Assembly (NCBI GenBank): GCA_041658325.1
Contig: JBBAAI010000001.1
Location: 154,869 to 218,868, forward strand
Length of the DNA stretch: 64,000 nt
Direction of reading: 5' to 3'
Source: Minisyncoccota bacterium
GTDB lineage: Bacteria; Patescibacteriota; Minisyncoccia; Phycocordibacterales; UBA9973
Positions 5,438 to 61,577 of this stretch are shown in pieces (positions within the stretch are counted from its first letter, which is position 1; every line of letters begins with the position of its first letter). A program made the translations under genes and the position numbers. The notes beneath the pieces are model-generated. The model did not search any database, had not been told where the DNA came from, and saw only the letters and a program-made list of their open reading frames with translations.

Positions 5438-5917
5438 CTAAAATCTCATATAAGCAAAGGCCGTTAACGCGATAGCAATAGCGTCTAACTCATCGTCAGA
5501 GGTTTTAGATTTATCTATTTTTACAAGAATTTTTACCATTTTCATAATCTGCGCTTTGTCAGAAGCACCATAACCAGTCGTTGCTATTTTTATTTGGGGA
5601 GGAGAAGCCTCAAAAATTTTAAGTCCTGCGCGAGAAGCTTCATAAATTACCACTCCGCGCGCTTCGGCGACGCACATAACTGTTTTATGATTAGTGGTTA
5701 AAAACAGAGTTTCAATTGAAAGAACCTCTGGTTTATATTTTTTTATTATTTTTTTAATTTCCCCTCCTATTAAATTTAATCGATCTCCAAATTCTAATTT
5801 AGTAGAGGTTTTAAAACATTCTGAAAAAAGAACGTGCTCATTTTTATCGTTTTTATTTTTTTCCAATACAGAGATACCTAATCTCTCATACCCTGGATCT
5901 ACTCCTAAAATTCTCAT
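5438..5917 (-). CDS. ruvC: Holliday junction resolvase RuvC
   Basis: MRILGVDPGYERLGISV N-terminus typical of RuvC; 159 aa. Confidence 0.85.
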   Translation of the reverse strand: MRILGVDPGYERLGISVLEKNKNDKNEHVLFSECFKTSTKLEFGDRLNLIGGEIKKIIKKYKPEVLSIETLFLTTNHKTVMCVAEARGVVIYEASRAGLKIFEASPPQIKIATTGYGASDKAQIMKMVKILVKIDKSKTSDDELDAIAIALTAFAYMRF

Positions 5918-6480: not shown

Positions 6481-7524
6481 TTAAAGTAATTTTTTTTGTA
6501 AATCTTCTGGAAGATCAAAACCTAAATGTTCATATGCTTTTTTAGTAGCAATGCGTCCGCGAGGGGAGCGTTCTAAGAGGCCGAGTTGAAGTAAGTATGG
6601 TTCTATCACTTCTTCCACTGTGGCCTCTTCTTCTGACATTGCAGCACCAATTGTTTTTAGCCCCACTGGTCCGCCGTTAAATTTTTCAATCAATATTTCT
6701 AAAAATTTTCTATCAGAGGAGTTTAATCCAATATCATCAATTGCAAGCATATTAAGGGCTTCTTTAACTGTTTTTTTATTTAAATCTTTTTTATGTACTT
6801 GGGCAAAGTCTCGACAACGTTTCAAAAAATAATTTGCGGTACGTGGAGTAAATCGACTTCGCTCGGCAATTTCTTTTATGGCTTCATTTTCTAGTATCGT
6901 TTTTAAAAGCTTACTGGATCTTTCTATTATTTTTGCAATTTCTTCATTGGAATAAAATTCCAATCTGAAAACTCCACCCGAAAAACGAGAACGAAGGGGA
7001 GAGGAGACCATGGCGACTCTAGTGGTTGCCGCAATTAAAGTAAAAGGAGGAAGATCTAGTTGAATGGTGCGAGCGGACGGGCCTTTGCCGATAATAATAT
7101 CTAAAACACCAGACTCCATTGCTGGATAGAGTATTTCTTCTACCATTTTATTAAGTCGATGAATTTCATCTATAAATAAAATATCTCCAGAAGAAAGATT
7201 TGTAAGGATAGAGGCTAAATCACCTACTTTTTCAATTGCCGGACCAGAAGTGATCTTCATTTGTCTACCTGTTTCCTTGGCTATAAGGTGCGCAAGGGTG
7301 GTTTTTCCTAATCCAGGAGGTCCATAAAATAAAATGTGTTCAGGAATATGGCCACGCTCTTCTGCCGCTCGCAGTAAGATTTTTACGTTGTCTTTTATGT
7401 GTTTTTGGCCGATATATTCATCCCAACTAGTAGGGCGAAGAGTTTGGTCTAAAAAAGAGTCATCAATAGTTGTGTTTTTTTCTGGGGTTATTTTATTTGG
7501 TGTTTTCGTGTTTTTGCTTGACAT
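6481..7524 (-). CDS. ruvB: Holliday junction branch migration ATPase RuvB
   Basis: Walker A GPPGLGKTTLAHLIA; RuvB-type AAA+ domain plus winged-helix C-terminus; 347 aa. Confidence 0.9.
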   Translation of the reverse strand: MSSKNTKTPNKITPEKNTTIDDSFLDQTLRPTSWDEYIGQKHIKDNVKILLRAAEERGHIPEHILFYGPPGLGKTTLAHLIAKETGRQMKITSGPAIEKVGDLASILTNLSSGDILFIDEIHRLNKMVEEILYPAMESGVLDIIIGKGPSARTIQLDLPPFTLIAATTRVAMVSSPLRSRFSGGVFRLEFYSNEEIAKIIERSSKLLKTILENEAIKEIAERSRFTPRTANYFLKRCRDFAQVHKKDLNKKTVKEALNMLAIDDIGLNSSDRKFLEILIEKFNGGPVGLKTIGAAMSEEEATVEEVIEPYLLQLGLLERSPRGRIATKKAYEHLGFDLPEDLQKKLL

Positions 7525-49927: not shown

Positions 49928-50341
49928 ATGGGTGAATTTTCTCCAAAAACAAGCAATCCTGAAAGAAATGAAAAACTTTCAAAAAGAATATTATTTGCTG
50001 ATGATGAAAAAAGTATTTTATTTGGGTTGGGTATGCTTTTAGAGGGCGAGGGCTATACTGTTGATACGGCAGAAAATGGACAATTACTTTTAGATAAATT
50101 GGAAAAAGAAAATTATGATCTTGTTGTTACTGATAATAACATGCCTATACTTGATGGCATTGAAGCACTTAAACGGATTCGTGGTGACGCACGTTTTAAA
50201 AACTTACCGGTAATTGTTAATTCAGGAGATGATGTTGGAGAAACTGTCAAAAGCCTAGGAGGAGTCTTTTCTTCGAAAGGTAATTCTTTTAACATTCTAC
50301 TTAAAAAGATTAAAGATCTTCTTTCAGATTCTGGGGAATAA
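49928..50341 (+). CDS. stand-alone response-regulator receiver (CheY-like) domain protein
   Basis: ILFADDEKSI...LVVTDNNMPILDGIEALKRIR with conserved Asp pocket and Lys; no output domain. Confidence 0.7.
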   Translation: MGEFSPKTSNPERNEKLSKRILFADDEKSILFGLGMLLEGEGYTVDTAENGQLLLDKLEKENYDLVVTDNNMPILDGIEALKRIRGDARFKNLPVIVNSGDDVGETVKSLGGVFSSKGNSFNILLKKIKDLLSDSGE

Positions 50342-54570: not shown

Positions 54571-54582
54571 AAATTAACTAAA

Positions 54583-54620
54583 AGAATCCCCGATAAGGGG
54601 ATTTTTAGTTGCTTTTTATT
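54583..54620 (+). terminator. intrinsic terminator after rplB (unusual mid-operon)
   Basis: aatcccc gata aggggatt hairpin + tttagttgctttttatt. Confidence 0.6.
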
Positions 54621-54663
54621 TTGAAAGTGTTATAATACTCTCTATCTATCTGAGGAGGTGTCA

Positions 54664-54837
54664 ATGTCGAAGAAGGTTCCGGCAAAGAGGAGAAGGTACA
54701 AGAGAAACCTGGAAAAGAAACAGCGCGAGGAGAAACTTGCGCGACAACAGGCTAAGGGGAGAGGGGTGCCGGCCGGTACTTTCCAAGATATTCAACCCGC
54801 TCTGAACAAGAGATTTAATGGGCGGGCACAAAGTTAG
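54664..54837 (+). CDS. small highly basic protein (57 aa), GC-rich, strong Shine-Dalgarno; inserted between rplB and rpsS
   Basis: gaggaggtg 5 nt upstream of ATG; MSKKVPAKRRRYKRNLEKKQREEKLARQQAKGRG...; below the 60-aa ORF-track cutoff so read directly from sequence. Confidence 0.5.
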   Translation: MSKKVPAKRRRYKRNLEKKQREEKLARQQAKGRGVPAGTFQDIQPALNKRFNGRAQS

Positions 54838-54852
54838 CTCTGTTTGGATCAC

Positions 54853-54899
54853 GGGCGTGTTGCGGGTTTGATTCCCCGGCACGCCCTTTGTTTTTATTT
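54853..54899 (+). terminator. intrinsic terminator after small basic ORF
   Basis: gggcgtg...cacgccc stem enclosing a nested cggg/cccg hairpin, then tttgtttttattt. Confidence 0.6.
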
Positions 54900-54971
54900 A
54901 AAAATTGACATTTTATTTGAATTTGCTATTATGAAACCAAGCTCGTTAGGAGCTTTTTGTTTGCTTAAATT

Positions 54972-58002: not shown

Positions 58003-58551
58003 ATGAAACACTTAAACGTAAAAGAAAAAGAAATAGAGGCATTTGGAAAAATGAAAGACGCTTTTCATTTTAAAAATGTGATGGCTTCTCCAAAAATGAA
58101 GAAAGTCGTAATCAATGTCGGCACAGGAACGATGGTCAAGAAAGACAAAAATAAAAATGAAGCCGTAGCAGACAGGTTAGCAAAAATTACCGGGCAAAAA
58201 ACTGCCTTGCGAGGAGCGAAGCAATCCATTTCTTCTTTTAAAATTCGCCAAGGAGATCCTGTCGGAGTTGTCGTCACTCTTCGTGGTAAAAGAATGTTCG
58301 CCTTTTTGGAAAAATTAATTAATGTGGCGCTTCCTCGTACGAAGGACTTCCGTGGTATTAATCGTAAAGCAGTAGATAATATCGGGAACTTAACTATCGG
58401 CATCAAAGAACATACCATTTTCCCAGAAACAGCTGATGAAGATATCCGCGACGTTTTCGGTTTGTCTATCACCCTTGTTTCAACTGCAAAAAACAAAAAA
58501 GAAGGCACCGCCTTCTTCGAACTCCTAGGTGTTCCTTTTAAAAAGGAATAA
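58003..58551 (+). CDS. rplE: 50S ribosomal protein L5
   Basis: 182 aa; order; conserved L5 core. Confidence 0.95.
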   Translation: MKHLNVKEKEIEAFGKMKDAFHFKNVMASPKMKKVVINVGTGTMVKKDKNKNEAVADRLAKITGQKTALRGAKQSISSFKIRQGDPVGVVVTLRGKRMFAFLEKLINVALPRTKDFRGINRKAVDNIGNLTIGIKEHTIFPETADEDIRDVFGLSITLVSTAKNKKEGTAFFELLGVPFKKE

Positions 58552-58561
58552 AACTTTCTAT

Positions 58562-58590
58562 TGACTTTTTCTTAAAATATGCTATCCTAT
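58562..58590 (+). promoter_or_regulatory. sigma70-like promoter for DGR target gene
   Basis: ttgact-N17-tatcct; followed by a 46-nt leader hairpin gtcatagcca...tggctatgac (58626-58671). Confidence 0.45.
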
Positions 58591-58750
58591 AAAGATAGTT
58601 CTTTAAAATTACTTGCGAAGGTGGTCATAGCCAAAAGGTGCTTAATATTAGGCATTTCCTGGCTATGACTACCGTTGTGGTTGTCCTCTAGCAAAAACCT
58701 AACCGATGCGTCCTATGGGATGTGTCAAAGAAAAAGGAAGGATGTGCCAA

Positions 58751-59377
58751 ATGGCAAATGCGTCCGAAATCTCTGTCGGTTTAGTTCACGAGCTCGCCAT
58801 CACGGGCACCAAGGTCGGATTCGAGCCCAAAGACTTCGCTACTCTCGCCCACAGCGAGGAAAGGATGTCTTCCATCCTCGGCGTGCTTCATGGTACGCAC
58901 GAGATCCGTCCGATCGATTATGTGATCGATTTCAACTCTCCGGCTCGGTTGCCGTTCAACGGTGCCGTGCTCGAGGTGCACCGCGGAACGGGCATCGTCA
59001 AGCTCGAGAAGAAGGCCGACGGCCTGTATCTCGACGGAAAGAAGCTCACGCTCTTTCTCTCCAAGAAGCAGAAAAAGGGAGGCGTCATCGAGGGCAACAA
59101 GCTTCGCATCGAGCTCGAAAAGAGGGGTAAAAATGTAGGAGCGAAACTCCTTGACCACTTCGTCGAGCATCCAGAGATGTGGCCCGAGGAGTGGAAGAAG
59201 GACGACCAGGGTAATACGCTCTACGTGTTTTTCTGGGATGACATCTTCCGCAACCCGGCGTGTGGCGATCTGTATGTCCGGTGTGGGTGCTGGCGCGGAG
59301 GCGAGGTCATCTCGGGCTACGACTGGCTCGGCGATGACTGGCGCGGCCGCAGCCCGGCTGTCTCTTCCGTAAGTTAG
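58751..59377 (+). CDS. DGR target (variable) protein; C-terminal VR; GC-rich
   Basis: About 208 aa. The 3' 124 bp is homologous to the TR with mismatches only at TR adenines. Start chosen at MANASEISVG (aggaagg SD 9 nt upstream); ORF track alternative start is 58706. Confidence 0.75.
   Translation: MANASEISVGLVHELAITGTKVGFEPKDFATLAHSEERMSSILGVLHGTHEIRPIDYVIDFNSPARLPFNGAVLEVHRGTGIVKLEKKADGLYLDGKKLTLFLSKKQKKGGVIEGNKLRIELEKRGKNVGAKLLDHFVEHPEMWPEEWKKDDQGNTLYVFFWDDIFRNPACGDLYVRCGCWRGGEVISGYDWLGDDWRGRSPAVSSVS
59246..59369 (+). repeat. DGR variable repeat (VR)
   Basis: ttccgcaacccggcg...gctgtctcttccg; 104/124 identical to TR; all 20 mismatches lie opposite TR adenines. Confidence 0.85.
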
Positions 59378-59426
59378 TAATCAGAACTTTGCCTCTTGGA
59401 TCTTCTTGATCCTTGAGACTTAGTCC

Positions 59427-59473
59427 TTGGGCCCTGTGTGTTTGCTTCGGCATTCGCGCAGGGCCTTTTGTTT
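59427..59473 (+). terminator. hairpin + T-run after target gene
   Basis: gggccctg tgtgtttgcttcggcattcgcg cagggcc ttttgtttt. Confidence 0.55.
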
Positions 59474-59706
59474 TGGTAAAATAAATATGGTAGTAGGTGA
59501 ATACGCGAGCGACCACGGTTTCTCGCTACCGAATCCAGTATCCGTATGTCGAGAATATTTGCGACTAAGGTTTCAAATAGGGTGATATACGAAGACACTT
59601 CAAAAATGAAGTTACTTGGTGTAAGGTGCTATGGCATTACGATGCCGAATACGATACAACCTTGAGAGTATTCAAAAGGTGGTGGCACAGAAGGCAGCTT
59701 ACACAT

Positions 59707-59830
59707 TTCCGCAACCCGGCGAATGGCAATCTGTATGTCCGGTATGGGTACTGGAACGAAGGCAAGGTCATCTCGAACTACAACTGGCTCGACAATGACT
59801 GGAACGGCAACAACCCGGCTATCTCTTCCG
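59707..59830 (+). repeat. DGR template repeat (TR)
   Basis: Intergenic copy of VR, rich in AAC/AAT codons (nine Asn codons in VR frame). The open frame in the ORF track (59626..59859) is a consequence of VR homology. Confidence 0.85.
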
Positions 59831-59839
59831 CAACTTACT

Positions 59840-60205
59840 TCATTTCTCTCTCGTCTTAACGGCGGGAGAGTTTTGTTTTAGGAGTTGTCCGTTCCAACCC
59901 CCGAGCATTTTTCCAATTTCTTCTATTTTTTGAGAAAGAACAATATATTTTTTATCGTCAATTGATTTTGCTTCCCATAAAACCATCAAAAGTATTTTTA
60001 GAGTATCTGATTTTCGTATCGCTAACCGAACCCAAGGATGTTTTTCTTCTCGAGATAAAAAAGTAGCGATAGAAACAGCTTCAATAATTTCAATAAACAT
60101 CGTATCAATCTTTAATCCCAAAGAGTGCTTGTGTATTTTGGGCAGAATTTGATAAAAGGTAATCCAGAGAAGATAACAGCTCTTAACTTTTGCCAATAAT
60201 GGCAA
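59840..60205 (-). CDS. avd: Avd-like four-helix-bundle accessory protein (TIGR02436 / 23S rRNA-IVS protein family-like)
   Basis: About 120 aa; EAVSIATFLSRE and EEIGKMLGGW match the AVSIPSNIAEG and eeIgkML signatures of the family; lies between TR and RT on the opposite strand; apparent TTG start. Confidence 0.5.
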   Translation of the reverse strand: MPLLAKVKSCYLLWITFYQILPKIHKHSLGLKIDTMFIEIIEAVSIATFLSREEKHPWVRLAIRKSDTLKILLMVLWEAKSIDDKKYIVLSQKIEEIGKMLGGWNGQLLKQNSPAVKTREK

Positions 60206-60210
60206 AAGTT

Positions 60211-60220
60211 GGGGGGGGGG
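60211..60220. repeat. G10 homopolymeric tract in the divergent avd/RT intergenic region
   Basis: gtt gggggggggg tac, 17 nt upstream of the RT ATG. Confidence 0.9.
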
Positions 60221-60236
60221 TACTATTATAAATACT

Positions 60237-61253
60237 ATGTCCCGAATCCAATTTAGTCATACTTACGACTATATCATTTCTCTAGAAAATCTGCTTTTGG
60301 CGTGGAAAGAATTTGTTGTCGGCAAGAAAAATCGCAAAGACGTAGAAGAATTTCAAAGAAATTTGATGACTAATATAATTTCGTTACATACGGATTTAGT
60401 AAATAAAGCATACAAGCATTCCCAATATGAAGCATTTAATATTTCTGACCCAAAACCGCGCAATATTCACAAAGCGAAAGTACGGGACAGATTATTACAT
60501 CATGCGATTTATCGAGTTTTGTATCCTTTTTTTGACAGGACATTTATTACTGACTCCTATTCTTGCAGAAAAAACAAAGGAACACATAAAGCCATAAACA
60601 GATTCAGAAAATTTGCCTATCAAGCGTCAAAAAATCATACCAGAACAGTTTGGGTTTTGAAAGGGGATATTAAAAAATTCTTTGCTAATATTGATCACGA
60701 AATATTAAAAGGAATTTTGAGAAAACATATTCAAGATAAAAATGTTCTTTGGCTCTTGGGGCAGGTGATAGATAGCTTTTCTTCCCAAAAACATATTTAC
60801 GCTATCGCTGATATATGCAGTAAGGGTTTACCACTCGGCAATCTAACTTCCCAACTTTTAGTAAATATTTATATGAATGAATTTGATCAATTTGTGAAAC
60901 ATAAAATCAAAGCGAAACACTATGTTCGTTATGCGGATGATTTTGTAATTTTGTCGCAAAATAGAAAATGGTTAGAAAATACAATTGTTAGAATAAAAGA
61001 TTTTCTTGAAAATGAACTTATGCTTTCTTTACATCCTGCAAAATTATCCATAAGTACCGTTGCCTCTGGCGTGGATTTTTTGGGTTGGGTTTTATTTCCA
61101 GACCATAGGGTAGTCAGGACTATCACGAAACGGAGGATGTTTCATGGTGTAAAAAAGAAGCACGGGAGTTTTGAAACAGTGCAATCATATCTAGGCTTGT
61201 TAAGCCATGGAAATGCAAGAAAGTTAGAAAGTGAGATAAAAAATTATATTTGA
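60237..61253 (+). CDS. DGR-type reverse transcriptase
   Basis: RT motifs 1-2 (ISDPKPRNIHKAKVRDRLLHHAIY), motif 4 LGNLTSQLLVNIYM with DGR-specific SQ, motif 5 YVRYADDFVIL (YADD); 338 aa. Confidence 0.85.
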   Translation: MSRIQFSHTYDYIISLENLLLAWKEFVVGKKNRKDVEEFQRNLMTNIISLHTDLVNKAYKHSQYEAFNISDPKPRNIHKAKVRDRLLHHAIYRVLYPFFDRTFITDSYSCRKNKGTHKAINRFRKFAYQASKNHTRTVWVLKGDIKKFFANIDHEILKGILRKHIQDKNVLWLLGQVIDSFSSQKHIYAIADICSKGLPLGNLTSQLLVNIYMNEFDQFVKHKIKAKHYVRYADDFVILSQNRKWLENTIVRIKDFLENELMLSLHPAKLSISTVASGVDFLGWVLFPDHRVVRTITKRRMFHGVKKKHGSFETVQSYLGLLSHGNARKLESEIKNYI

Positions 61254-61391
61254 CTCTTTTGGGATTATTTGCTAATATCAAAACAAGGGAATAGGGCTTT
61301 GATTAATCCACTTTTCTCCTTTAATTCTTTAGTTTTAAAGGGTTAAAGAAAAAAAGTGAGATATTAACGGAGCAATCCTGATAAATTATTT

Positions 61392-61577
61392 ATGGCAAAA
61401 ACATCAGTAAAAGCTAGAGCAGCAAAAAAACCAAAATTTTCTACTCGACAGAAAAATCGATGTTTTCGCTGTGGCCGAGGAAATGGTTTTATGCGTGATT
61501 TCGGTATTTGCCGAATTTGTTTTAGAGAATTAGCAAACGAAGGAATGCTTCCGGGTGTTCGTAAATCAAGTTGGTAA
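61392..61577 (+). CDS. rpsZ: 30S ribosomal protein S14 type Z (zinc-binding)
   Basis: 61 aa; [23 protein letters not shown]. Confidence 0.95.

Follow-up and report, generated by a model that had tools for sequence, protein, structure and literature searches.

A complete diversity-generating retroelement (DGR), composed of a target gene with its VR, a TR, an avd gene and a reverse transcriptase (RT) gene, is located between the ribosomal protein genes rplE and rpsZ in the analysed window, a 64-kb stretch of DNA (64,000 nucleotides) from a Minisyncoccota bacterium. The insert between the rplE stop codon (58551) and the rpsZ start codon (61392) is 2.84 kb long, and all parts of the 2.8-kb cassette described in an earlier note on this DNA were found in their places, which confirms the initial observation. 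The identity of the element as a DGR is fully supported by the adenine-specific VR/TR differences, the Avd protein, the DGR-type RT and the putative C-type-lectin-like target. With function judged from sequence features, it can with good confidence be described as a complete, probably functional, Patescibacteria-specific DGR of the B3 layout, residing in a lineage-specific accessory-gene slot.

Components of the element and their classification

The protein-coding and repeat components are as follows.

58751..59377, plus strand: DGR target gene, 208 aa (the longest ORF starts at 58706), no Pfam family
59246..59369, plus strand: VR, with 20 differences from TR, all at TR adenines
59370..59384, plus strand: IMH-like 3' flank of VR, resembling the TR 3' flank and differing from it at non-A positions
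59707..59830, plus strand: TR, 124 nt, 32 of them A
59840..60205, minus strand: avd, 121 aa, TTG start, convergent with TR
60237..61253, plus strand: DGR RT, 338 aa, with LGNLTSQ and YADD motifs

VR and TR form a direct repeat of 131 nt with a core of 124 nt and a start-to-start spacing of 461 nt (given as 460 bp in the earlier note). The adenine specificity of the mismatches withstood re-alignment: all 20 core mismatches fall at TR adenines, the 12 other adenines are kept, and no non-A mismatch is present. With A at 32 of 124 positions, the chance of such a distribution is ∼2e-12 by our arithmetic. Non-A differences start directly past the core, at TR positions 59831, 59834 and 59838 (C to T, C to G and C to G, respectively, versus the VR flank), and across loci they also cluster in the 3' extension of the repeat. 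Adenines account for 540 of the 659 TR/VR mismatches in 32 related loci, 25 of which have the TR 5' boundary within 0-1 nt of one alignment column (6 nt off at most). At the C-terminal end of the target ORF, the VR keeps the reading frame (offset 0), and 8 nt separate it from the stop codon. The TR contains 10 AAY codons and only one codon able to mutate to a stop. A search of the 64-kb window using the TR made degenerate at A identified no second VR.

The target probably starts at 58751; the NCBI gene call gives 208 aa, in agreement with the family alignment. Its C-terminal domain, putatively C-type-lectin-like, carries the VR, and the hypervariable columns of the target-family alignment correspond to this region. 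Sequence searches against solved structures with the target and with Avd returned nothing useful. The target was correctly described as a GC-rich gene ending in the VR: its GC content is 54% outside the VR, compared to 36% for the window, with a jump at the cassette borders. GC-richness as a mark of recent transfer into this genome was considered and rejected, because it is general to the target family, 58 of 77 members of which have a GC content more than 5 points above that of their flanks, regardless of the GC content of the host.

The Avd-like gene reported previously is present, and its product gave full-length matches to NCBIfam DivGenRetAVD (1.9e-14, 53.8 bits, residues 1-104; below the curated cut-off of 80) and Pfam bAvd (3.9e-9, 37.4 bits; below the curated cut-off of 40), which place it among Avd proteins. 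An 88% identical orthologue in a related locus from another metagenome, L084 (described below), is listed with an unmarked bAvd match. The gene lies on the minus strand (59840-60205), a correction of the earlier reading.

The RT matched RVT_1 (1.5e-25), with the RT domain at residues 73-285. Its best solved relative was 8ub7, a 328-aa chain named "Reverse transcriptase" (1.9e-42 over the full length). We take this chain to be the Bordetella phage bRT. Motif 4 of the window protein, LGNLTSQ, aligns with IGSLTSQ of this chain, and YADD is present, so that the assignment as a DGR-type RT stands. The protein has more than 8,000 relatives, the named ones being from Patescibacteria, and the NCBI source name for it is Candidatus Paceibacterota. 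Derivation of the RT from a group II intron or a retron might be suggested by the best NCBIfam match, to a group II intron RT/maturase, by further matches to retron and Drt models, and by the NCBI annotation "reverse transcriptase/maturase family". However, the TIGR04416 score is 157 bits versus a cut-off of 300, with the match ending at profile position 273 of 353, and the retron model scores 67 bits versus 235, and hence the protein belongs to neither family. Moreover, Rfam searches (E<=1, 58400-61500) detected no group II intron or retron RNA, a protein of 338 aa with this domain position has no room for a maturase or endonuclease region, and group II intron RTs (∼1e-19) are more than 20 orders of magnitude behind 8ub7. 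The VR/TR pattern, accompanied by Avd, had already refuted such an origin, and its probability is minimal.

The order target/VR, TR, avd (minus strand), RT is the core order of B3, and the host belongs to CPR. B3 is defined by TR, reverse-strand avd and RT, and comprises 90% of CPR DGRs (Wu et al. 2018, PMC5758913). Target, reverse avd and RT occurred in this order in 31 of the 80 target-family loci fetched. The element therefore belongs with the CPR/Patescibacteria DGRs (B3, or DGR clade 2 of Roux et al. 2021, PMC8144416), from which it differs in nothing essential: it shares with them the gene order, the chromosomal location, an RT from a very large Patescibacteria clade, and a small target without transmembrane or known domains. 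What sets this copy apart is its insertion point, with rplE on one side and the promoter of rpsZ on the other, together with signs that a target-plus-TR-RNA module was exchanged on a conserved chassis of RT and Avd. It resides in a cellular genome and not in a phage; a phage origin was rejected, as phage RTs among the matches listed were at most 38% identical, and all were below 60%.

RNA elements and a proposed mechanism

Several elements with predicted RNA structure or promoter function were recognized within the cassette.

58561..58588, plus strand: P1, promoter-like site of the target module, TTGACT-16-TATCCT with TG before the -10 box (consensus scan)
58590..58700, plus strand: structured 5' leader of the target gene, conserved, with a long hairpin at 58620-58673 (inverted repeat)
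59393..59475, plus strand: hairpins downstream of the target, namely a small hairpin (59393-59417) and a GC-rich terminator-like hairpin (59430-59465), with a T-run
59474..59482, plus strand: extended -10 box, TGgTAAAAT, putative TR RNA promoter, read from the sequence
59489..59704, plus strand: structured RNA domain 5' of TR, ∼220 nt, 10 helices
59604..59618, plus strand: 5' arm of a long-range helix, pairing with 59831-59845 and thereby enclosing TR (inverted repeat)
59831..59845, plus strand: 3' arm of this helix, IMH*-like TR flank, overlapping the avd stop codon on the other strand
59846..59879, plus strand: post-TR hairpin with T-run, terminator-like, antisense to the avd 3' end

The promoters and terminators described here are consensus matches whose support comes from conservation alone. 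In unrelated genomic surroundings, too, the target-gene leader has an equivalent of P1 ahead of it (TTGACA/T...TATAAT-like). The notion that P1 is a duplicate of the rpsZ promoter (P2, see below) was rejected, as P1 and the leader accompany target genes in such contexts. Nhmmer matches to the leader were found directly upstream of target genes in ∼18 loci, stand-alone targets included; its fold has a z-score of -5.9, 10 of its 21 pairs show compensatory changes, and no Rfam family matched it. The DNA of the hairpins downstream of the target has a fold z-score of -4.6, and hairpins of different sequence occupy the equivalent place in L084 and in L009, a locus of a neighbouring lineage. The extended -10 box has counterparts at the same alignment position in both (TGtTATACT and TGtTAAACT, respectively).

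The domain directly upstream of the TR is shared by about 50 CPR loci. Single-sequence nhmmer searches matched it in 48 loci, and a profile in 50 sources, with one match in the window. RNAalifold predicted 55 pairs, 44 of which are compensatory; 97.2% of the cells are paired, compared to 37-49% when the structure is slid, and none of 500 shuffles reached the observed pairing values. Against the family profile the window copy scored 219 bits, as high as any member. A coding function of this region (a 52-aa ORF, 59427-59585) was rejected, given the single-nucleotide indels and pervasive compensatory pair changes. Rfam searches were negative for 58400-61500 (E<=1) and, at the gathering score, for four related loci, and the RT-1 to RT-19 motifs, including the Bordetella DGR motif RT-10, were not matched beside RT or TR. 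The domain may already be described in the primary CPR-DGR paper (Paul et al. 2017). Published RNA analysis was confined to 40 nt on the upstream side of the TR and 100 nt on its downstream side.

Helix 8 of this domain (59619-59630 with 59693-59704) ends 2 nt before the TR and directly adjoins the long-range helix at its 5' arm, so that the two share one continuous strand, 59604-59630. In the full-length alignment, from which the statistics of the long-range helix and the post-TR hairpin were obtained, 80% of the cells of the long-range helix are paired, compared to 37-55% when slid, with compensatory changes in 4 of 15 pairs and two positions consistently unpaired. Covariation is sparse because both arms are highly conserved and the helix overlaps the avd stop codon. 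A helix enclosing the TR has moderate support from these alignments. A naive search for a partner of the A-rich 5' arm was misled by the terminator T-run. For the post-TR hairpin, 93% of the cells are paired and 5 of 8 pairs are compensatory. It is possibly the counterpart of the Avd-binding stem-loops, which sit just downstream of TR in Bordetella (Handa et al., bioRxiv 10.1101/2023.10.23.563531).

Based on these features, the following mechanism is proposed. The target would be transcribed from P1, perhaps also by read-through from rplE, and its transcript would pass through the conserved leader and end at the terminator. A separate TR RNA of ∼390 nt (about 59489-59880) would start at the extended -10 promoter and end at the post-TR hairpin. 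By analogy with Bordetella, its 5' domain would be bound by RT and Avd, with helix 8 and the long-range helix stacked on the continuous strand 59604-59630 and the TR held as a loop. cDNA synthesis would start at the TR 3' end, beside the long-range helix, probably cis-primed from a conserved G (59618 or 59619), miscopy adenines on the way and halt at helix 8. Replacement of the VR by the cDNA could then diversify the C-terminal ligand-binding surface into as many as about 2.5e18 variants. The scaffold, priming-site and stop roles are proposed by analogy with the Bordetella RNA. The geometry would be that of the Bordetella core, with the scaffold strand supplied from 5' of the TR instead of 3'.

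The Bordetella BPP-1 DGR (mtd-avd-TR-brt; RNA as in Handa et al., bioRxiv 10.1101/2023.10.23.563531; Rfam RT-10) resembles the window element in adenine mutagenesis from TR to VR, the presence of Avd, the IGxxxSQ/YxDD motifs of the RT, and a target with a C-terminal VR and a C-type-lectin fold (putative in the window). In both, although on the window side as a prediction, the TR is bracketed by two adjacent duplexes that share one continuous strand, and a stem-loop is located just 3' of the TR. However, the 140-nt scaffold RNA of Bordetella (Sp) follows the TR on its 3' side, whereas the window has a ∼220-nt structure 5' of it and only ∼50 nt after it; avd is upstream on the same strand in Bordetella but convergent in the window; and the window RNA shows no sequence or Rfam similarity to RT-10. 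The 5' position of the domain suggests a DGR RNA permuted relative to that of Bordetella. In topology only, retron msr-msd is also comparable, in that a structured RNA outside the template precedes it on the 5' side, a 5' segment forms a duplex with sequence just 3' of the template, and the 5' arm ends in a conserved G, from which priming in the window is hypothetical. Unlike retrons, the window contains neither a retron RNA nor an RT of that family, and its product would serve VR homing and not be kept as msDNA.

We also put forward a broader proposal, to which we give somewhat less than an even chance. In the Patescibacteria B3 DGRs, which number in the thousands, an undescribed ∼220-nt RNA 5' of the template would act as an RT-Avd scaffold. 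It would be a circularly permuted, retron-like form of the Bordetella RNA, with synthesis primed at the G (59618/59619) and stopped by helix 8, and modules would be swapped onto the resident RT/Avd. Whole target-plus-TR-RNA modules could be swapped because the 5' RNA domain and the target leader are common across the clade. If this is true, target genes constitute a mobile pool, which would explain their ∼55% GC in genomes of 34% to 63% GC. A covarying RNA 5' of the TR offers a testable model of assembly and priming for the most numerous class of cellular DGRs, and modular exchange of target and template could guide the engineering of DGR-based mutagenesis systems.

The rplE-rpsZ junction as an accessory-gene slot

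The borders of the slot and the native elements preceding rpsZ are listed below.

58003..58551, plus strand: rplE (ribosomal protein L5), left border, Pfam Ribosomal_L5 and Ribosomal_L5_C
61250..61278, plus strand: P2, native rpsZ promoter-like site, TTGACT-17-TAATAT with TG before the -10 box; the -35 box overlaps the RT stop codon
61279..61391, plus strand: native rpsZ leader, conserved, with nhmmer matches in 33 loci
61392..61577, plus strand: rpsZ (S14, zinc-binding type), right border, Ribosomal_S14

In relatives without an insert, the rplE stop codon is followed by a conserved TTGACT-N17-TAnnAT promoter, a leader of ∼110 nt and then rpsZ. The leader contains a covarying hairpin and invariant blocks, and had no Rfam match. 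The statement that bacteria normally have no spacer here is therefore wrong for this lineage, whose empty junctions measure about 110-340 nt, mostly near 180 nt. The DGR is placed exactly between the rplE stop codon and P2, which explains how downstream rpsZ expression can persist; rpsZ-rpsH-rplF would be kept expressed from P2, which would answer the earlier question raised by the local promoter and terminators, as P2 and the leader also exist in empty junctions.

The suggested comparison with syntenic operons did reveal empty sites, but it also revealed that the slot recurrently holds other cargo: 22 of 51 related loci carry 0.46-2.8 kb at this junction, including pilin-like genes, a MazF-like toxin and a deaminase. 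Profile searches detected no DGR remnants in these inserts, and slot contents are patchy among the closest relatives. A DGR was present at rplE-rpsZ in 1 of 80 species-level target-family loci and in none of 80 metagenomic rplE relatives, and the three next-closest RTs with inspected context are all encoded elsewhere in their genomes. Neither an integrase, a transposase nor a target-site duplication was found in the window's insert, and the slot has no att-like repeats. The junction is a lineage-specific accessory-gene slot in which placement of a DGR is rare but not disruptive. The DGR is tolerated there because the junction already has an internal promoter and serves as a slot.

Two loci illustrate how the contents of the slot change. 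L084, from an independent metagenome and with ribosomal proteins 91% identical to those of the window, carries a complete DGR whose position agrees to the nucleotide; its target is unrelated and comes with a matching TR (15 of 15 VR/TR mismatches at A). The RT and Avd are 84% and 88% identical between the two loci, and RT and avd have host-like GC, whereas the RNA domains are only 72% identical, L084 ranking about 17th of 36. The target-plus-TR-RNA module thus appears to have been swapped between them. In L009, a truncated copy at the same site has kept the target and part of the RNA domain and lost TR, avd and RT; behind it lies another rplE 3' end, which shares only 83% identity with the first. 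This foreign rplE end points to homology-anchored recombination. Slot cargo, including the DGR and its target-plus-TR-RNA module, is probably exchanged among relatives by recombination anchored in ribosomal genes and DGR elements, a route supported by one locus (L009) and by similarity ranks that disagree.

These observations bear on the implicit picture of the earlier note, in which a recent one-off insertion of a mobile DGR split a tight spc operon. The position between rplE and rpsZ, unusual for a DGR, was borne out, whereas the one-off break with unexplained rpsZ expression was not. The absence of a DGR from this site in the 80 metagenomic relatives and a target far richer in GC than the genome would fit such an event. 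It is nevertheless largely refuted, and we consider it very improbable: the rpsZ promoter and leader are present without any insert, L084 has the chassis at the same position with RT/avd at host-like GC, GC-richness is general to the target family, the insert lacks integrase, transposase and target-site duplication, and the site holds other cargo in 22 of 51 loci and a truncated copy in L009. An assembly chimera of a DGR contig and a ribosomal operon might be suspected from the GC jump at the borders and from the capacity of VR/TR repeats and conserved DGR elements to mislead assemblers, but both flanks come from one operon, the sequence also turns up in an NCBI MAG, in a megahit contig at ENA and, at 100% identity over 4,894 nt, in a Logan contig, and L084 shows the same arrangement in an independent metagenome. 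The probability of a chimera is next to nil.

The most probable alternative, although it too is unlikely, is that the cassette is a fossil, a DGR that was active in the past, has since had its target fixed and is kept as harmless in the slot. In its favour, the VR does not vary among the public copies of the target, and L009 has lost TR, avd and RT yet kept the target. Against it, no non-A mismatch has accumulated over 124 nt despite the 461-nt spacing, in a genome ∼20% divergent in nucleotides from its closest relative; the three ORFs are intact, with YADD and LGNLTSQ present; the RNA domain scores level with any member of its family; and the identical copies may stem from one sample or population. 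A functional DGR remains the preferred reading, in which the VR may still be diversifying. No differences separate the three target proteins in public databases, and the target's 90%-identity cluster contained no natural VR variants, its three members being one protein with different start calls.

Horizontal-transfer hotspots, in which accessory genes lie between conserved core genes, are a general concept. The slot resembles them in that one junction between highly conserved genes holds different accessory genes in close relatives; unlike them, it lies inside the S10-spc ribosomal protein cluster and lacks an integrase or att-like repeats. It may give its cargo read-through transcription from ribosomal genes. 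Wu et al. 2018 (PMC5758913) list five ribosomal cases. The documentation of a DGR embedded in this cluster is of modest weight.

The retroelement between rplE and rpsZ

The S10-spc ribosomal protein cluster lies at the end of the window, and the insert between its rplE and rpsZ genes spans 2,840 nt, comprising three ORFs and two repeats. The following features were assigned to it.

Features of the insert and its borders
58003–58551, rplE, left border of the insert
58751, likely start of the target ORF, in agreement with the family alignment and with the start called by NCBI
59246–59369, core of the variable repeat (VR), 124 nt
59707–59830, core of the template repeat (TR), 124 nt
59840–60205, minus strand, avd (accessory variability determinant), match to the full length of the Avd models at scores under the curated cut-offs
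60237–61253, reverse transcriptase (RT), match to RVT_1
61392–61577, rpsZ, right border of the insert

The two repeats form a direct repeat of 131 nt (461 nt start to start) with a core of 124 nt. The TR contains 32 adenines, 20 of which are substituted in the VR and 12 unchanged, while comparison of the 92 non-A positions revealed no differences; the chance of 20/20 mismatches all falling at A is ∼2e-12 by our own arithmetic. The VR is in frame, and 8 nt separate its end from the stop codon of the target ORF. There are 10 AAY codons in the TR and only one codon mutable to stop, and the theoretical repertoire is ∼2.5e18 proteins. Just 3′ of the core the VR and TR copies are still similar, with non-A differences, as expected of IMH and IMH*.

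The closest solved structure to the RT is 8ub7 (a 328-aa 'Reverse transcriptase' chain), which we take to be the Bordetella phage bRT. It was matched over the full length at 1.9e-42, compared to about 1e-19 for group II intron RTs. The LGNLTSQ motif of the window RT is aligned with IGSLTSQ of 8ub7, and YADD is also present. Matches to group II intron, retron and Drt models were all far under their cut-offs. The adenine-specific mismatches found on re-alignment, the RT of diversity-generating retroelement (DGR) type, the Avd and the target ORF carrying the VR therefore confirm the claim of the earlier note that a complete DGR is present here. By its sequence, the retroelement between rplE and rpsZ is an ordinary DGR of the CPR, presumably active.

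The gene order TR-(avd)-RT corresponds to architecture B3 of Wu et al. (2018), which accounts for 90% of CPR DGRs (PMC5758913), and a target, a reverse avd and an RT occur in that order in 31 of the 80 fetched target-family loci. The RT clade comprises >8,000 proteins, whose named members are Patescibacteria; a Patescibacteria-restricted DGR clade, with targets lacking recognisable domains, has been described (Roux et al., 2021, PMC8144416). Typical DGRs of Patescibacteria type were also found in MAGs labelled Gammaproteobacteria and Bdellovibrionales (loci L026, CAZAPV010000029, and L044, CAYTIK010000032, respectively), labels that probably reflect mis-binning. At another related locus (L013), a match to the Rfam LOOT RNA (77.8 bits) was located at 2726–2853, about 4 kb upstream of the DGR.

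The joins do not stem from misassembly: a 175-kb ENA megahit contig and an NCBI MAG annotated Candidatus Paceibacterota contain the same sequence, and a Logan contig is 100% identical to the window across 4,894 nt. The arrangement of the window recurs in a contig from an independent metagenome (L084).

The rplE–rpsZ junction in related lineages

To compare the insertion site among relatives, the 80 closest metagenomic rplE relatives were surveyed, 51 contigs of which carry both rplE and rpsZ. The spacing between the two genes is 110–341 nt, mostly about 180 nt, in 29/51 contigs, and 463–2,825 nt in the others. The short, empty junctions are uniform: the rplE stop codon is followed within about 1 to 50 nt by TTGACT-N17-TAnnAT, and then by a conserved leader of roughly 110 nt reaching up to the rpsZ start codon. 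In the window, both elements are found directly after the RT.

Elements upstream of rpsZ
61250–61278, P2, native rpsZ promoter-like site, whose -35 box contains the RT stop codon
61279–61391, rpsZ leader, found in 33 related loci (e.g., L095 5619–5726)

The leader consists of a covarying hairpin of variable length and invariant single-stranded blocks (AAGGGAAT, TTAATCC, CTTTTCTCC and GTGAGATATTAAC). An Rfam search with this leader gave no match; it is probably a ribosomal-protein autoregulatory leader. The promoters and terminators named here and below are consensus matches whose sole backing is their conservation. Since P2 and the leader of the empty junctions directly follow the RT, the DGR is placed between the rplE stop codon and a pre-existing internal promoter. 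This answers the question, raised previously, of how rpsZ-rpsH-rplF is expressed: the putative native promoter and leader are kept downstream of the DGR.

The longer junctions contain other cargo. The commonest are type IV pilin-like proteins with an N-terminal methylation motif, usually with a small membrane protein ahead, and a PemK/MazF-like toxin, a cytidine deaminase on the opposite strand, an AAA ATPase and assorted hypothetical proteins were also found. In one related locus (L106), the slot is occupied by a distant relative of the DGR target family (hhalign probability 98%). The slot content does not agree with relatedness, measured as concatenated ribosomal-protein identity to the window. 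At 91% identity, L084 carries a DGR and another relative, L088, the deaminase; at 88%, the slot is empty or occupied by a pilin gene. The junction from rplE to P2 is thus a variable accessory-gene slot in the Paceibacteria lineage of the window; in the window itself, it corresponds to 58552–61391.

None of the 80 metagenomic rplE relatives carries a DGR in this slot, a single DGR remnant was found there among 80 species-level target-family loci, and three of the next-closest RTs (74% identical) are located in unrelated genomic contexts. The insertion had been considered unusual, which holds for the rarity of DGRs at this position but not for the junction itself, a cargo slot in 22/51 loci. A lineage-specific cargo slot ahead of the native rpsZ promoter accounts for the rare placement, which is therefore less anomalous than the earlier note held.

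Two further observations were made in the ribosomal gene clusters. The rplB-rpsS spacer inside the S10 cluster, possibly a second variable spot, is 400 nt long (54571–54971; 656 nt in L084), has a GC content somewhat above that of the adjacent DNA and contains a 59-aa highly basic ORF (54658–54837). In the str region, a stand-alone response-regulator receiver gene (137 aa, 49928–50341) is located between fusA and tuf.

Conserved RNA elements around the template repeat

Nucleotide-level conservation and predicted pairing were found on both sides of the TR.

RNA elements around the TR
59474–59482, extended -10 box TGnTAAAAT, putative promoter ahead of the 5′ RNA domain, also in L084 and in the related locus L009
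59489–59704, 5′ RNA domain, ∼220 nt long, upstream of the TR
59604–59618 with 59831–59845, long-range helix, 15 + 15 nt, 3′ arm immediately 3′ of the TR
59619–59630 with 59693–59704, helix 8, adjoining the 5′ arm of the long-range helix and ending 2 nt before the TR
59846–59879, hairpin and T-run directly 3′ of the TR, antisense to the end of avd

The 5′ RNA domain was detected in 48 loci by single-sequence nhmmer (E down to 5e-40), and in 50 sources by a profile search. RNAalifold predicted 55 pairs in 10 helices, with 97.2% of cells paired, compared to 37–49% with slid partners, and with compensatory changes in 44 pairs; none of 500 shuffles attained any of the observed measures. There was no match to this domain in Rfam 15 at E<=1. 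Rfam covers the RT-associated motifs of Weinberg et al. (2017), including the Bordetella Sp motif RT-10. The hairpin following the TR is 93% paired, with compensatory changes in 5/8 pairs. Support for the long-range helix is moderate (80% paired versus 37–55% with slid partners, four compensatory pairs, two positions never paired), since covariation is sparse in two highly conserved arms, of which the 3′ one overlaps the stop codon of avd. In 32 loci, the TR/VR homology starts 0–1 nt from the same alignment column in 25 cases and within <=6 nt in all, and it ends within the first few nt of the 3′ arm, in which the non-A mismatches are concentrated; across these loci 540/659 mismatches are at A.

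In Bordetella, a 140-nt Sp RNA located 3′ of the TR envelops bRT and Avd, and forms one duplex with the 3′ end of the TR, with priming from Sp A56, and an adjacent second duplex with the immediate 5′ flank of the TR, which is the stop (Handa et al., bioRxiv 10.1101/2023.10.23.563531). Similarly, one continuous strand in the window (59604–59630) is predicted to pair with the 3′ flank and then the 5′ flank of the TR. However, the large domain to which this scaffold strand belongs is located 5′ of the TR, with only about 50 nt remaining on the 3′ side. Given the shared two-duplex strand and its 5′ location, we propose that the RNA of CPR DGRs corresponds to the Bordetella RNA in permuted form, with its parts in a retron-like order. 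By this analogy, from which the roles of all the RNA elements are drawn, a conserved G (59618 or 59619) would prime the cDNA, templating would start near 59830, and helix 8 would be the point of termination. The RNA analysed by Handa et al. reached no further than 40 nt to the 5′ side and 100 nt to the 3′ side of the TR (bioRxiv 10.1101/2023.10.23.563531), and the 5′ RNA domain was therefore outside the scope of that study.

Possible exchange of target modules

The target gene is preceded by a module of its own.

Elements upstream of the target gene
58561–58588, P1, promoter-like site
58590–58700, target leader, about 100 nt, structured

The leader contains a long hairpin (58620–58673; z -5.9; 21 pairs, 10 of them compensatory) and invariant flanks (GTTCTTTAAAA, ACTTGCG and GTCCTCTAGCA), and an Rfam search with it gave no match. 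P1 and the leader immediately precede target genes in about 18 loci (e.g., leaders at L086 7844–7946, L087 7849–7956 and L006 5661–5761), including stand-alone targets without a nearby RT and the unrelated target of L084.

Contig L084 carries rplE, P1, the leader, a 202-aa target, the TR, avd (minus strand), the RT, P2 and rpsZ, in this order, and its element has borders at the same nucleotides as that of the window. Its RT and Avd (84 and 88% identical, respectively) are by far the closest found, while its target is unrelated to that of the window (BLASTP E 0.8) and has its own VR/TR pair, with 15/15 mismatches at A. DNA similarity breaks off at 58677, where the leader hairpin ends, and begins again at 59472. 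The TR-proximal RNA domain of L084 is 72% identical to that of the window and ranks about 17th of 36; loci with RTs about 67% identical reach 79% in this domain. The simplest reading of these similarities is that the whole block from leader to TR was exchanged on a conserved RT/Avd chassis. The conserved 5′ RNA domain, together with the modular exchange that it may permit, is the most interesting result of this analysis.

A possible route is indicated by L009. Behind rplE and a terminator, this locus has P1, a target gene from the same family as that of the window (47% identical) and roughly 140 nt from the 5′ end of the RNA domain. There the sequence passes directly into a repeat of the final ∼45 rplE codons, after which P2 and rpsZ follow; the TR, avd and RT are absent. 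Its two rplE 3′ ends (5662–5815 and 6884–7037) are only 83% identical, like rplE of separate species, so one of them arrived with the cargo. The duplicated rplE end looks like the scar of homology-anchored cargo import from another lineage, consistent with recombination anchored by rplE homology and an illegitimate second junction. The evidence for this route is the single locus L009 and the discordant similarity ranks.

Outside the VR, the GC content of the target family is about 50–60% at any host GC (34–63%), and in 58/77 family loci (among L004–L083) the target exceeds its flanks by >5 points. The RT and avd of the window have a host-like GC content of 33–34%. Together with the target swap in L084, these values suggest a horizontally circulating pool of targets, which would move between genomes more freely than the RT/Avd chassis. 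The nearest homologues of the window target (L086 8001–8627 and L087 8001–8627; 71–74% identical) have the same leader and are stand-alone, neither an RT nor avd being present within 8 kb. They may be orphans, or may serve as remote targets for a DGR located elsewhere in the genome.
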